From the NCBI RefSeq assembly GCF_013315695.1, contig NZ_CP054353.1: 64,000 nt of DNA; one strand, 5' to 3'. The notes under the pieces were generated by a model that ran no database searches, was not told the origin of the DNA, and saw nothing but the letters and a program-made list of their open reading frames with translations. A program made the translations under genes and the position numbers. Below, piece by piece: positions 818 through 4,914 of the stretch (position 1 is the first letter of the stretch; every line of letters begins with the position of its first letter). This stretch comes from Escherichia coli (GTDB taxonomy: Bacteria; Pseudomonadota; Gammaproteobacteria; Enterobacterales; Enterobacteriaceae).

Positions 818-1367
818 GCATCATTGGAAAGTGGAAAAACAGCCTGAGTGGTACGTGAAAGCTGTCAGAAAAACTATCGCGGCGTTGCCGGGGGGTTACG
901 CTGAAGCTGCTGAGTGGCTGGATGTAACAGAGAACGCATTATTCAACCGCCTTCGTGCAGATGGCGATCAGATTTTCCCGCTGGGATGGGCAATGGTTTT
1001 ACAGCGTGCGGCTGGCACTCACTACATTGCGGATGCTGTCGCACAGTCTGCTGGTGGGGTGTTCGTATCGCTTCCTGAAATTGAGGCAGTAGAGAACGCC
1101 GATATAAACCAGCGCCTGCTGGAAGTCATTGAACAGATCGGCAGTTATTCCAGACAGATTCGTTCAGCAATCGAAGACGGTGTAGTGGAACCGCATGAGA
1201 AGACAGCAATTAACGACGAACTGTATCTTTCAATTTCGAAGCTCCAGGAGCATGCAGCACTGGTCTACAAAATCTTCTGCGCTCCAGAAAAGAGTAACGC
1301 CCGCGAGTGTGCAGCTCCGGGCGTCGTGGCGTCGATTGCTTCTGGTTGTGGAGAAACTAACGCATGA
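810..1367 (+). CDS. Early-region hypothetical protein in the cII position (possible CII-like regulator)
   Basis: 185 aa ORF, GTG start overlapping cro stop, preceded by GGAGG; function inferred only from position. Confidence 0.45.
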   Translation: MGKHHWKVEKQPEWYVKAVRKTIAALPGGYAEAAEWLDVTENALFNRLRADGDQIFPLGWAMVLQRAAGTHYIADAVAQSAGGVFVSLPEIEAVENADINQRLLEVIEQIGSYSRQIRSAIEDGVVEPHEKTAINDELYLSISKLQEHAALVYKIFCAPEKSNARECAAPGVVASIASGCGETNA

Positions 1368-2509
1368 ATAGTTTAACGGCAAATAACCGTTTGTCGCAAC
1401 AGCTGGTGGTCAGCGTCGCTGAACACCTGTTGTTACGGCATGAATGCAGATTACCAAATCACCTGGCTGTAAGTAACCACAGAGAACTTTACCTGACTGT
1501 GGGGGGCGAGTTGTGCAGGAACTTAACCGCTGGTTTCGTGACGGAAGAGGGCTTTATGTCCATGTTATTCGTTGGGAGCCAGAAACACAGCGCGTTATCT
1601 ATCTTCGCAAAGACTACCCGCATGAGTGCTTTAGTCCTTTGTGGAAATTCAGGCGTGATTTTGTTGAGTGTGAAGGACCACCAGCATATTGATTCTGCAA
1701 TTCCGGGACGTTACACTGTTCAGGCACCTTATAAAGCGGGTGCCGGGATTGGCGTCCTGAAATTCGCACATGCGCATAACCGCGCTTCAGCGGTTTTTTT
1801 GCGCACGTTTCCTCACATCCAAATTATGGTGGGGCGTGCAGGGGCATCGAAAGATGCGCCGGGGTCATGTGCGACCGGTTACGCCAACCCTGTACGTCTC
1901 ACCACCTCTGTGATTGGCGTCCCATGTGGTGAGTTTTCAAAATTCGCACATGAGGATGTCACTATGGCAACCACCCCTACCCAAACTCACCCTAAAATTG
2001 ATGTTATCCATGGGAAGGCTGTTACCTCTTCTTTGGCCGTTGCCGAATATTTCTGCAAGCAGCACAAAAACGTTATTCAAAAAATCCAGACGCTTGAGTG
2101 CTCTGTTGAATTCACTGAGCTGAATTTTCAGCCCAGTGATTACACCGATTGCACAGGCCGCAAACTCCCTTGTTACCAAATCACCCGCGACGGTTTTGCG
2201 TTTCTTGCCATGGGCTTCACGGGGAAACGTGCTGCCCGGTTCAAAGAGGCATACATCAATGCCTTTAACCAGATGGAGAAACAGCTTTCAAATCCCTCTG
2301 TACTGAGCGACGTTGCACATAACGCCAGCGTTCTCTATTCCTACATTTCATCAATTCATCAGGTCTGGCTGCAGCAGCTTTATCCTATGTTGGCAAAAGC
2401 CGAATCTCCGCTGGCTGTTAGCTTGTATGACTATATTAATGATGCTTCGGCGCTGGCCTGCCTCATAAATTTGTCGCTGAATCCTTCAGAGGTAAGGGGG
2501 CGTAAATGA
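1364..2509 (+). CDS. Rha-family phage regulatory protein, copy 1 (Rha core from ATG 1964; N-terminal extent uncertain)
   Basis: C-terminal 180 aa carry Rha signatures (KIDVIHGKAVTSSLAVAEYFCKQHKNVIQKI ... FLAMGFTGKRAARFKEAYINAFNQME). ATGA overlap with upstream stop at 1364; internal ATG 1964 has a GAGGA RBS. Confidence 0.6.
   Translation: MNSLTANNRLSQQLVVSVAEHLLLRHECRLPNHLAVSNHRELYLTVGGELCRNLTAGFVTEEGFMSMLFVGSQKHSALSIFAKTTRMSALVLCGNSGVILLSVKDHQHIDSAIPGRYTVQAPYKAGAGIGVLKFAHAHNRASAVFLRTFPHIQIMVGRAGASKDAPGSCATGYANPVRLTTSVIGVPCGEFSKFAHEDVTMATTPTQTHPKIDVIHGKAVTSSLAVAEYFCKQHKNVIQKIQTLECSVEFTELNFQPSDYTDCTGRKLPCYQITRDGFAFLAMGFTGKRAARFKEAYINAFNQMEKQLSNPSVLSDVAHNASVLYSYISSIHQVWLQQLYPMLAKAESPLAVSLYDYINDASALACLINLSLNPSEVRGRK
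1513..1692 (+). CDS. Small hypothetical protein (59 aa, GTG start), paralog of ORF 3384..3608; overlaps the copy-1 Rha upstream frame
   Basis: Frame-1 translation VQELNRWFRDGRGLYVHVIRWEPETQRVIYLRKDYPHECFSPLWKF... looks protein-like and shows DNA and protein similarity to 3384..3608 (HVLRV...QKVI); GGGGGG RBS-like run before the GTG. Confidence 0.3.
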   Translation: MQELNRWFRDGRGLYVHVIRWEPETQRVIYLRKDYPHECFSPLWKFRRDFVECEGPPAY

Positions 2510-3387
2510 TCCGGAATATTTTCAAACTGTTTACCAATCGCCACCAGCATATTGATTCTGCAATTCCGGGACGTTACACTGTTCAGGCACCTTATAAAGC
2601 GGGTGCCGGGATTGGCGTCCTGAAATTGTCAACGGCGATGTATGACGCGCCAGCGTCTTTTTTATCGTCCGCATTTGCTCACATCCAGATTATGGTGGGC
2701 TGGGCGGGGGCACCGAAAGGTGCGCCGGTCTCCGTTGACGCCGGTTACGCCAACCCCGTCCAGTTCACCACCAGTGAAATTGGCGTTTCCGGTGGTGGAA
2801 GTTTTTCACTGTCAACGGAGGCTGCCATCATGGCTACGATCCCAGCCCTCACTCAACCTGAAATCACCATTGACAACGGCCAGGCCGTTACCACTTCTTT
2901 GGCTGTTGCCAACTTCTTCTCCAAGCGTCACGACGATGTGCTGAAAAAGATCCGCACTCTGGATTGTTCCCCTGAGTTTTGTGCCCGCAATTTTGCGGAG
3001 ACATCGATTTCGGTAAATCAACCGAACGGTGGTACACGCAAGCTCCTTTGCTATCAAATCACACGAGACGGTTTTGCGTTTCTTGCTATGGGTTTCACGG
3101 GTAAACGTGCTGCCCGGTTCAAAGAGGCATACATCAATGCCTTTAACCAGATGGAAAAACTGCTTTCAAAGCCATCCACGCTGAGCGATGCCGCAGATAA
3201 CGCCAGCGTGCTTTACTCCCACCTGTCGGTAATCCACAAGGTCTGGCTGCAGCAGCTTTATCCCATGTTGGCAAAAGCCGAATCCCCGCTGGCTGTAAGT
3301 CTGTATGACCGCATCAACGACGCGGCGCTACTGGCCAGTCTCATAAATTTGTCGCTGAACCCTTCAGAGGTAAGGGGGCGTAAATGA
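2506..3387 (+). CDS. Rha-family phage regulatory protein, copy 2 (tandem paralog)
   Basis: 293 aa; Rha motifs AVTTSLAVANFFSKRHDDVLKKIRTL and FLAMGFTGKRAARFKEAYINAFNQME; ATGA start overlapping the copy-1 stop. Confidence 0.7.
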   Translation: MIRNIFKLFTNRHQHIDSAIPGRYTVQAPYKAGAGIGVLKLSTAMYDAPASFLSSAFAHIQIMVGWAGAPKGAPVSVDAGYANPVQFTTSEIGVSGGGSFSLSTEAAIMATIPALTQPEITIDNGQAVTTSLAVANFFSKRHDDVLKKIRTLDCSPEFCARNFAETSISVNQPNGGTRKLLCYQITRDGFAFLAMGFTGKRAARFKEAYINAFNQMEKLLSKPSTLSDAADNASVLYSHLSVIHKVWLQQLYPMLAKAESPLAVSLYDRINDAALLASLINLSLNPSEVRGRK

Positions 3388-3608
3388 TCCGGAATATTTT
3401 CAAACGGTTTACCAATCATACTTTCCGTTGTCCTCGTCCGGGTCAGTGGTACACCACGCCTGCAGGGCATGTTCTACGTGTTAGCCTGGTTGACCGTGAA
3501 TGTCAGAAGGTGATTTGTGAACCGCTGGGCCGTAATTACCGCGTCAGTATGCCGCTTATAGCCTTTCGCTCCGGAAAAAACATGAAGCATCTCGGAGGTG
3601 CTGCATGA
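3384..3608 (+). CDS. Small hypothetical protein (74 aa) sharing its first 22 nt with the Rha copy-2 start
   Basis: Starts ATGATCCGGAATATTTTCAAAC, identical to 2506-2527; ATGA overlap with the Rha copy-2 stop and with the downstream replication gene start. Confidence 0.4.
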   Translation: MIRNIFKRFTNHTFRCPRPGQWYTTPAGHVLRVSLVDRECQKVICEPLGRNYRVSMPLIAFRSGKNMKHLGGAA

Positions 3609-4423
3609 GTATGGAGTTGATGGTTAAAGCGATGAAAATTCGAGTGGGAAATCCATTGCGAAAACTGGTTCTGATTAAGCTGGCTGATAATGCCAGCGAT
3701 CAGGGTGAGTGCTGGCCCAGCTACCAGCATATTGCTGACCAGTGCGAGATTAGCAAACGTTCTGTGATGAATCATATTGCGGCCCTTTGTGAGTCCGGGC
3801 TGGTAAAAAAAGTCACCCGGAAAGGTGAAAAAGGTAACTCAAGTAATATCTATCTCCTTCATCTTGATGGTGCAGGAGATTCACTAGGGGGTAGTGCAAA
3901 TAATTCACTATCTGGTGCAGCAAATTCACCAGGTAGTGCAGGAGTTGCACCAGGGGGTAGTGCAGGAGATTCACCCAGAACCAGTCACTCTTTTGAACCA
4001 GTCAAAGAACCAGTCAATGAACCAATAGCTGTTGGTGCATCTGCTGATGAGTCTGTGCGAGTTCGTTCAAACCGACCGGAATACTCTCCGGAGTTTGAGC
4101 AGGCATGGCTGGCCTATCCAAAACGTGCTGGTGGCAATTCAAAATCTGCAGCCTTCAAAGCCTGGAAAGCCCGTTTGAATGAGGGGGTAAACCCCGAAAC
4201 CATGCTGGAAGGTGTGAAACGCTACGCGGGCTGGGTATCTGCGATGGGTAACAGCGGCACACAATTTGTGAAACAGGCTGTCACGTTCTTTGGCCCGGAT
4301 CGTCATTTCGAAGAATCCTGGGAAGTTCCTGCGGTATCTGCAGTCAGACGCGAGGACCCGTACTTCAAAGCCAGTTACGACAACGTGGACTACAGCCAGA
4401 TCCCGGAAGGATTCAGGGGGTGA
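3605..4423 (+). CDS. Phage replication initiation / replisome-organizer-like protein with N-terminal winged HTH
   Basis: 272 aa; N-terminus MSMELMVKAMKIRVGNPLRKLVLIKLADNASDQGECWPSYQHIADQCEISKRSVMNHIAAL; internal iteron-like DNA repeats; position after the cII/rha block. Confidence 0.6.
   Translation: MSMELMVKAMKIRVGNPLRKLVLIKLADNASDQGECWPSYQHIADQCEISKRSVMNHIAALCESGLVKKVTRKGEKGNSSNIYLLHLDGAGDSLGGSANNSLSGAANSPGSAGVAPGGSAGDSPRTSHSFEPVKEPVNEPIAVGASADESVRVRSNRPEYSPEFEQAWLAYPKRAGGNSKSAAFKAWKARLNEGVNPETMLEGVKRYAGWVSAMGNSGTQFVKQAVTFFGPDRHFEESWEVPAVSAVRREDPYFKASYDNVDYSQIPEGFRG
3865..3985 (+). repeat. Iteron-like direct repeats inside the replication gene (candidate ori)
   Basis: Repeated motifs GGTGCAGGAGATTCAC (x2), AGGGGGTAGTGCA (x2), GGTGCAGCAAATTCACC, AGGTAGTGCAGGAG; encode a G/S/A-rich linker GGSANNSLSGAANSPGSAGVAPGGSAGDSP. 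Confidence 0.5.
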
Positions 4424-4914
4424 TCATGAGTCTTTTGAATGAAGTTCAGAAATTCATTGAAGCCCATCCGGGCTGTACTTCCGGAGACATTGCGGATGCT
4501 TTTGCTGGTTACTCACGGCAGCGCGTTCTGCAGTCAGCAAGCAAGTTACGTCAGAGTGGGCGTGTGGCTCACCGTTGTGAAGGAGATACACGCAGACATT
4601 TCCCACGCCTGACTGAGAGAGCGCAGGATCCGGAACCACAACCAGTTCGTGAAACCAGACCTGTGCGCAATTTCTATGTCGGCACTAACGATCCCCGTGT
4701 GATTTTGTGCCTGACCCGCCAGGCTGAAGAACTGGAGTCCAGGGGCTTATACCGTCGTGCTGCAACGGTGTGGATGGCGGCATTCCGTGAAAGCCACTCC
4801 CAGCCAGAACGAAACAATTTTCTGGCACGTCGTGAGCGGTGCTTACGGAAAAGCAGCAAGCGCGCTGCATCGGGTGAAGAGTGGTATCTGTCAGGGAATT
4901 TCGTGGGGGCTTAA
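4420..4914 (+). CDS. Hypothetical protein with PerC/Pch-like C-terminal motif
   Basis: 164 aa; C-terminal LESRGLYRRAATVWMAAF...RRERCL resembles the PerC-family GLWRRAA..W...RR..C signature; ATGA-coupled to neighbours. Confidence 0.45.
   Translation: MIMSLLNEVQKFIEAHPGCTSGDIADAFAGYSRQRVLQSASKLRQSGRVAHRCEGDTRRHFPRLTERAQDPEPQPVRETRPVRNFYVGTNDPRVILCLTRQAEELESRGLYRRAATVWMAAFRESHSQPERNNFLARRERCLRKSSKRAASGEEWYLSGNFVGA

Follow-up and report, generated by a model that had tools for sequence, protein, structure and literature searches.

A putative intragenic replication origin of an Escherichia coli lambdoid prophage, with dyad iterons followed by a conserved GAACC-periodic core

We analyzed a 64,000-nucleotide stretch of Escherichia coli DNA (contig NZ_CP054353.1 of assembly GCF_013315695.1), referred to below as the window, with a focus on an array of short repeats inside a gene for an O-like replication initiator. 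We propose with good confidence that positions 3868-4023 form the replication origin of a lambdoid prophage, located inside its own initiator gene, where the initiator would bind, the duplex would be unwound and replicon activity would reside. The five dyad repeats in this interval are very probably the initiator's own binding sites, as judged from the sequence features described here.

Phased dyad repeats inside the initiator gene

The gene, the repeats and the element that follows them are located as follows.

3605-4423, plus strand: initiator gene, 272 residues, 'O-like' (list of open reading frames (ORFs), Pfam HTH_36, PHROG 270/8540)
3868-3886: iteron 1, tgGTGCAggagaTTCACta
3892-3910: iteron 2, taGTGCAaataaTTCACta
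3913-3931: iteron 3, tgGTGCAgcaaaTTCACca
3934-3952: iteron 4, taGTGCAggagtTGCACca, with arms forming a perfect inverted repeat
3958-3976: iteron 5, taGTGCAggagaTTCACcc, adjoining the conserved core
3977-4023: conserved core, AGAACCAGTCACTCTTTTGAACCAGTCAAAGAACCAGTCAATGAACC, encoding RTSHSFEPVKEPVNEP; a candidate unwinding or helicase-entry element, at a module junction

All five units of the array match GTGMA-N5-TKCAC, with cores at 3870, 3894, 3915, 3936 and 3960, and repeat finders gave core-to-core spacings of 24, 21, 21 and 24 bp. Since a spacing of 21-24 bp is about two helical turns, the iterons should all face the same side of the helix. Five matches to the degenerate motif GTGMANNNNNTKCAC exist in the 64-kb window, all of them inside 3870-3974 (105 bp). 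In shuffled windows the motif occurred 0.52 times on average and at most three times, and none of 100 shuffles reached five.

The first-pass annotation of this DNA had described several short motifs recurring within 3860-3985. These fragments proved to be pieces of the single five-unit array. The motif AGGGGGTAGTGCA does occur twice (3886 and 3952), and the motifs listed as related to it, GGTGCAGCAAATTCACC (3914) and AGGTAGTGCAGGAG (3931), are present in one copy each. The 16-mer GGTGCAGGAGATTCAC, however, is found only once (3869); what recurs exactly is the 15-mer GTGCAGGAGATTCAC, at 3870 and 3960. The range given holds the iteron array, but a second repeat family runs past its end.

Two short ORFs overlapping the array, at 3894-4028 (plus strand) and 3813-3974 (minus strand), were considered as genes and rejected as alternative-frame readings of the repeats. 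The +1-frame peptide across the array (for example ...VVQEIHQ...) matches exactly the translation of some homologues at iterons displaced by a single base. A structured single-stranded element at 3860-4030 was also rejected, because the single-stranded DNA fold gave z = -0.6.

Conservation of the repeats at the DNA level

Homologues were collected independently of the repeats, by tblastn against phage records (loci L001-L010 and L290-L292) and by an IMG/VR scan with conserved N-terminal peptide patterns. A first scan for related loci gave almost only near-identical genes, and a divergent first sequence was then used to obtain a diverse sample. The conservation of the repeats in homologous replication genes, which the first-pass annotation had left to be checked, was evident: three to eight dyad repeats are present at the same place in every homologue examined, in many genera. 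Their position is constant, directly after the winged helix, and their sequence varies by group, following the recognition helix of the encoded protein.

To describe this co-variation, 43 recognition-helix variants were tabulated against repeat cores. All homologues bearing the helix EIS[KR]RSV[MI]xH carry GTGMA-N5-TKCAC in 4-6 copies, and this motif was absent from homologues with other recognition helices, which pair with repeats of their own:

Helix E[VI][SG]RSTVKxH: repeat GGGCAGGAGCTGCCC
Helix CECS[KR][ST]AV: repeat TGTGCC-N7-GCACA
Helix ECDKRTAM: repeat GTGACA-N3-TGTCAC
Helix EISKRTAMRAV: repeat GTGTCA-N3-TGACAC
Helix EISKASAR or EISHSSVR: repeat TATGCCAGCAGATAGCA

The symmetry of the sites extends beyond the pattern used to find them. 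Among 166 unique homologous sites, T at position -2 (0.90) stands opposite A at +16 (0.80), and R at -1 stands opposite Y at +15, all outside the search pattern. The iteron is thus described as a 19-bp dyad, TRGTGMA-N5-TKCACYA, which fits a dimeric ligand. The palindromic arms are conserved across the homologous sites and the 5-nucleotide centre is variable. Spacing in the homologues is 21, 22, 23 and 24 bp in 79, 24, 10 and 99 cases, with outliers of 30 and 42.

Neighboring copies are 22 or 23 bp apart in several lineages, and therefore the same DNA site is read there in another frame. This applies to 24 of 271 homologous sites, which encode VVQEIHQ rather than SAGDSP. We also compared 66 unique close variants of the 819-nucleotide gene. 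Variation at third codon positions affects 9 of 53 sites (17%) in the iterons, spacers and core, vs 124 of 220 (56%) in the remaining gene (Fisher p = 2e-7). By these sequence comparisons, the frame-shifted copies and the reduced synonymous variation show that selection acts on the DNA rather than on the peptide, and the amino-acid sequence of the linker is best explained as a passenger of the DNA repeats.

Copy number is polymorphic: there are five iterons in 100 of 106 unique close variants, and 4, 6 and 8 also occur. In phage cdtI (L001, 1760-1960), a 66-bp duplication comprises three iteron units. In near-identical genes (cdtI; IMG/VR loci L050, L027 and L055), the GAACCAGTCAAA units, encoding EPVK, number 2-5.

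A conserved core follows the array

The second repeat family lies in the core. The 10-mer GAACCAGTCA occurs at 3978, 3995 and 4007 and is followed by GAACC at 4019, giving GAACC starts with spacings of 17, 12 and 12 and a tandem repeat of period 12. Copies of GAACCAGTCA within the window differ in reading frame, some encoding R-T-S-H and others E-P-V. All homologues carry AGA AYC AGT CAC TCT TTT GAA CCA GTC AAT GAA CC at 2-3 nucleotides past the last iteron, and the codons of the core (33-47 nucleotides) are almost invariant in phages of Escherichia, Vibrio, Aeromonas, Pectobacterium and Aggregatibacter.

Codon use was compared in 22 non-redundant homologues picked by N-terminal peptide patterns only, with a conserved amino-acid column defined as one with the modal residue in at least 80% of sequences. 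The modal-codon fraction was 0.94 in the core vs 0.52 in conserved columns of the N-terminal domain (Mann–Whitney p = 1.4e-5). AGA was used in 20 of 20 cases, AGT in 20 of 20, TCT in 19 of 19 and GAA in 39 of 39.

A 38-nucleotide query found the core in 139 phage records, including phages of Vibrio, Klebsiella, Salmonella, Aeromonas, Pectobacterium and Aggregatibacter and the Stx phages 24B and Min27. Where the listed records are annotated, the core is always inside an O-like or helix-turn-helix (HTH) replication gene; several listed records carry no annotation at the core. In mEp013, a 1-nucleotide difference shifts the frame and AACCAGTCA is still kept. Psychrobacter phage Y8A and Pseudomonas phage Riah, with 34-41% identity in the N-terminal part, also have dyad iterons followed by GAACC every 11-12 nucleotides. 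Riah (L291, 1441-1625) has seven CCCCCGCAG-N5-TGCACCC repeats, some just 17 bp apart, followed by four GAACC at 11-12 nucleotides in three reading frames. Y8A (L290, 939-1063) has three GTGACA-N3-TGTCAC repeats and then GAACCTATCAAT tandem repeats.

The core also marks a junction at which the N-terminal/iteron module and the C-terminal module reassort (loci L213/L216 vs the window; L163). One iteron type can be joined to different C-terminal domains, and the window-type C-terminal domain also occurs behind an N-terminus of the GGGCAGGAGCTGMCC type.

We tentatively suggest that the core may be a sequence-specific origin element not described before, with the consensus AGAAYCAGTCACTCTnnnGAACCAGTCAwnGAACC, which would replace the AT-rich unwinding element, and that DnaB-DnaC may be recruited by mimicry of the DnaT tail. 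Under this tentative proposal, the core would be common to a large family of gammaproteobacterial phage origins, whatever the iteron specificity or helicase-loading module. With GAACC recurring about once per helical turn, it would be recognized, as duplex or as single strand, either by the region of the initiator that does not vary or by a conserved host factor.

Stability of the DNA next to the array

An adjacent AT-rich unwinding element had been suggested as something to look for. It was only partly seen: no 40-bp AT tract of the lambda kind was present, and the array is flanked by a low-stability stretch to the left and the conserved, moderately AT-rich GAACC core to the right. The stretch on the left is the following feature.

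3828-3868: low-stability stretch, a possible alternative unwinding site, directly left of iteron 1 (nearest-neighbor profile)

This stretch (GC 0.325) is the least stable 40-mer of 3300-4700, at -1.153 kcal/mol per step vs a mean of -1.42 (standard deviation 0.081). In the average over the 22 homologues, the stability minimum of the gene lay between +10 and +50, counted from where the core begins, with z reaching 1.74.

A DnaT-like tail on the initiator

4394-4420, plus strand: last nine codons of the initiator gene, encoding SQIPEGFRG (BLASTP)

Eight of these nine residues are the same as at the very C-terminal end of E. coli DnaT (SQIPPGFRG, DNAT_ECOLI). DnaT is a restart protein thought to bring in DnaB-DnaC (PMC5778457), and the DnaT-like tail is a lead to how the initiator might recruit the helicase. 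Tails differ in homologues from other host groups: in Aeromonas the sequence is ...DYGQSDCNW, and others end in ...GENLNF. The variety of tails suggests host-specific short recruitment motifs, in a phage without its own helicase or loader gene.

Proposed mechanism

We propose that winged-helix dimers of the initiator bind the five 19-bp iterons and build a nucleoprotein complex like the 'O-some' of lambda. This complex would open the neighboring DNA, most likely at the GAACC-periodic core (3977-4023) and alternatively at the AT-rich 40 bp on the left. Recruitment of the host DnaB-DnaC helicase would then fall to the C-terminal domain with its DnaT-like tail. Among relatives, a change of C-terminal domain is accompanied by a change in the neighboring gene, which encodes a primase-helicase, a DnaB-like helicase or a P-like loader.

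Several observations weigh against this interpretation. Neither DnaA boxes nor IHF consensus sites were found in 3500-4500, and a long AT-rich tract like that of lambda was not found at the array. The core is about 57% AT and is only the fourth least stable 40-mer within 3300-4700, and the family-average minimum there counts in part as one observation, since all members have the core sequence in common. The designation 'replication initiation O-like' is only an annotation label for PHROG 270/8540. Experimental work on any member of the initiator family was not found in the searchable literature. A description of the family's origin was also not found there, with literal motif strings included among the searches.

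Alternative explanations

The repeats could be a by-product of a peptide linker rich in G, S, A and P and expanded by slippage, in DNA without a cis function. The linker does contain peptide repeats of 7-8 residues in a segment predicted to be disordered, and copy number varies as slippage would give. Yet one DNA motif in two frames yields unrelated peptides, and the peptide repeats are wholly different between specificity groups, although dyad architecture and phasing are kept. Third positions vary less than in the structured domains, and the arms of the palindrome are held constant around a variable centre, so we consider this explanation highly improbable. A regulatory role is a second possibility: the repeats may be genuine winged-helix binding sites that serve autorepression or a roadblock of the initiator's own transcript, titration or handcuffing, or a partition-like function, with the origin elsewhere. 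Plasmid iterons also control copy number, repressors and centromere-binding winged-helix proteins are among the structural neighbors of the N-terminal domain, and a strong AT tract was not seen beside the array. However, the motif has no other copy in the 64-kb window, for example at promoters, and the array is always followed by the core conserved at the DNA level. Its position is likewise constant, inside the initiator gene and between the two domains, an arrangement shared with lambda, P22 and L (PMC7466680, PMC8022706), and the C-terminal domains co-vary with neighboring helicase or loader genes. A purely regulatory array therefore appears improbable, and an origin at 3868-4023 remains our preferred reading of the array.

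For the core on its own, a different role is conceivable, namely retention as a homologous-recombination linker for the reassortment of modules, perhaps also as an (EPxx)n peptide motif. The core is exactly at the junction of the reassorting modules, its conservation ends sharply at both sides, and GAA-CCN encodes Glu-Pro. We find this account somewhat unlikely. GAA is used in 39 of 39 cases though GAG would be equal for the peptide, the motif is kept in the shifted frame of mEp013, and the GAACC periodicity is kept, in three frames, in Pseudomonas and Psychrobacter phages too diverged to recombine. This frame-independent periodicity in far-diverged phages argues that recombination would not be the whole story. 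A linker role may coexist with a replication function of the core.

The initiator protein

The first-pass annotation had called the gene O-like, which agrees with its matches to PHROG 270 and 8540, 'replication initiation (O-like)' (E 3.3e-88 and 4.6e-62). In public E. coli genomes, the product of the 819-nucleotide gene is named 'helix-turn-helix domain-containing protein'. Two folded regions were assigned in the product.

3605-3868, plus strand: N-terminal winged HTH coding region, residues 1-88 (AlphaFold2, Foldseek, alignment)
4082-4420, plus strand: C-terminal helical domain (residues about 160-240) and disordered tail (AlphaFold2, PHROG, tblastn)

The N-terminal part matches Pfam HTH_36 (PF13730) at residues 17-67 (44.1 bits vs a gathering cutoff of 25), and its recognition helix, around residues 48-61, is EISKRSVMNHIAAL. 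The AlphaFold2 model, built on 18 homologues, has N-terminal helices at 3-11, 17-28, 40-47 and 51-64 and strands at 67-72 and 80-85, with predicted local distance difference test (pLDDT) values of 76-92. Residues 91-157 are predicted to be disordered (pLDDT about 30), and the C-terminal helical domain at 160-240 has pLDDT 78-91. With a winged helix at 1-88, disorder at 91-157 and a helical domain at 160-240, the repeats encode a flexible linker between the two domains, as had been suggested earlier.

Foldseek against the PDB placed the N-terminal domain among winged-helix DNA binders, including DnaD-N 2v79 and the plasmid Rep 5kbj; these were generic winged-helix matches, none at E<0.001. A PDB sequence search with the full protein gave only chance matches (E>0.1), and NCBIfam gave nothing over cutoff for the initiator. 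The C-terminal part matches PHROG 1701 'DnaD-like helicase loader' and 9327 'primosomal protein', and its tblastn matches are annotated as YdaU family, DUF1376 or phage replisome organizer; Pfam gave nothing when this domain was searched alone. We presume that the C-terminal domain is the part that recruits partner proteins.

Genetic context and other features of the region

The initiator gene is part of an early-right lambdoid operon that comprises a cII-like gene, two Ash/Rha antirepressor-like genes, a PerC-like gene, the initiator, and genes for Dam, LexA-like, RusA, KilA-N and Q-like antiterminator proteins. No helicase or loader gene was found 3' of the initiator in the window ORF list or by Pfam. 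The tandem paralogous Ash+Rha antirepressor-like genes at 1364-2509 and 2506-3387 are 75-87% identical in DNA at an offset of ~865-878 bp, and a 74-residue ORF at 3384-3608 begins with MIRNIFK..., the same start as the second Ash+Rha copy. From its sequence, the arrangement at 1364-3608 looks like an old tandem duplication.

No GATC was present inside the array, and a sigma-70 promoter scan of 3300-4700 found none. The same interval contained one terminator-like site, on the minus strand and within chance expectation, and the only Rfam match was a microRNA match far below threshold.

Occurrence and significance

The initiator is common in E. coli genomes, with an identical protein on 544 contigs. 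Phages SfV, cdtI, mEp460 and 1720a-02 and many Stx2c and Stx2a phages carry the gene at 97-99% identity, and Salmonella ST64B carries it at 88.5%. A 44.6-kb circular E. coli 'plasmid', pZ1323HEC0010-3 (NZ_CP148393.1, locus L293), is a phage genome with the same replication module and is without a replicon type in PLSDB. Matches to the module extend to several 38-48-kb 'plasmids' of Salmonella, Klebsiella and Arsenophonus.

The proposed origin in the window is an ordinary further member of the well-known class with intragenic iterons, and the short core after its array is unusually conserved. Three features are worth specialist attention: the nucleotide-invariant GAACC core, the series of co-varying helices and half-sites, and the DnaT-like tail. 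The start of prophage replication matters for induction, and the same module occurs in Stx2c, Stx2a, cdtI and serotype-converting phages. It may also be relevant to anti-phage defence, given the enrichment of the Lamassu protein LmuB at the iterons of lambda in the course of infection (PMC12663957). The pairs of recognition helix and half-site are natural orthogonal initiator/iteron pairs, usable for studies of specificity and for orthogonal replicons. The gene family also gives a case of a coding sequence that hosts a dense cis-element, in which a disordered linker peptide would be dictated by DNA sites, even across frame changes. If the invariant GAACC core is functional, it would offer a sequence-specific replacement for an AT-rich unwinding element.

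Comparison with known origins

The replisome organizer G38P of phage SPP1 has its origin oriL within gene 38. An origin inside the organizer gene is a likeness to the present system, as is the C-terminal match to PHROG 'DnaD-like helicase loader'. In contrast, the hosts of the window family are Gram-negative and the repeat anatomy is unlike. The match of the initiator to DnaD_N (PF21984) was 24.3 bits, under the cutoff of 27, and the structural match to 2v79 was weak (E 0.058).

In the iteron plasmids RK2 (TrfA), pPS10 (RepA) and R6K (pi), a winged-helix Rep protein acts with a phased array of direct repeats (PMC4980987). The plasmid iterons differ in being intergenic and bound by Rep monomers, with dimers on a separate inverted-repeat operator, whereas each iteron of the window is itself dyad-symmetric. 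No match to the Pfam Rep_3 or RepA families was found at E<0.01, and the resemblance, including that to 5kbj, is only that of a generic winged-helix structure. The plasmid unwinding element adjoins the array and has short direct repeats (13-mers), one strand of which is bound by Rep (PMC4980987). Short direct repeats with one strand contacted by initiators occur in the unwinding elements of both oriC and iteron plasmids; the GAACC core resembles these repeats, and it is plausible that the plasmid 13-mers are analogous to the GAACC repeats.

Gene 18 of phages P22 and L encodes distantly related ori-binding proteins, each with different iterons within its own coding region, and there too the origin was inferred by sequence inspection (PMC8022706). 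These proteins belong to another family and have other repeats, and a DnaB-type helicase (gp12) is encoded beside their initiator.

A close parallel is with lambda, as the first-pass annotation had noted from the location of the lambda origin inside gene O; array position, symmetry and spacing all match the layout of the lambda ori. In lambda and in the Stx phages 933W and P27, the origin occupies the central part of the initiator gene and separates the regions that encode a DNA-binding N-terminus and a partner-binding C-terminus, as proposed here. Both lambda/Stx phages and the window have 4-6 direct repeats of about 18-19 bp with internal dyad symmetry and a spacing of 20-24 bp (PMC7466680); a check against the lambda iterons gave an annotated spacing of 20, 24 and 23 bp, vs 24, 21, 21 and 24 bp here. 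Lambda has 4 iterons vs 6 in Stx phages, a parallel to the copy-number polymorphism described above, and lambda O also binds single-stranded origin DNA (PMC7466680). Further points of likeness are that extra iterons add residues to the protein, that the N-terminal part sets origin specificity, and that the gene lies in the early-right operon.

The differences concern the protein and the DNA next to the array. The N-terminus of the window initiator is HTH_36 and that of lambda O is Phage_rep_O (PF04492); the window protein has no PF04492 match at E<0.01, whereas lambda O itself scores 123 bits. Profile comparison detected no homology to lambda O, with an hhalign probability of 5% for the N-terminal alignment. 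Lambda has a 40-bp AT-rich tract where the window has the nucleotide-conserved GAACC-periodic core, the iteron sequences are unrelated, and the window phage lacks a P-like loader gene downstream. The shared layout supports the view that the array works like the lambda ori, although its initiator is outside the lambda O protein family.

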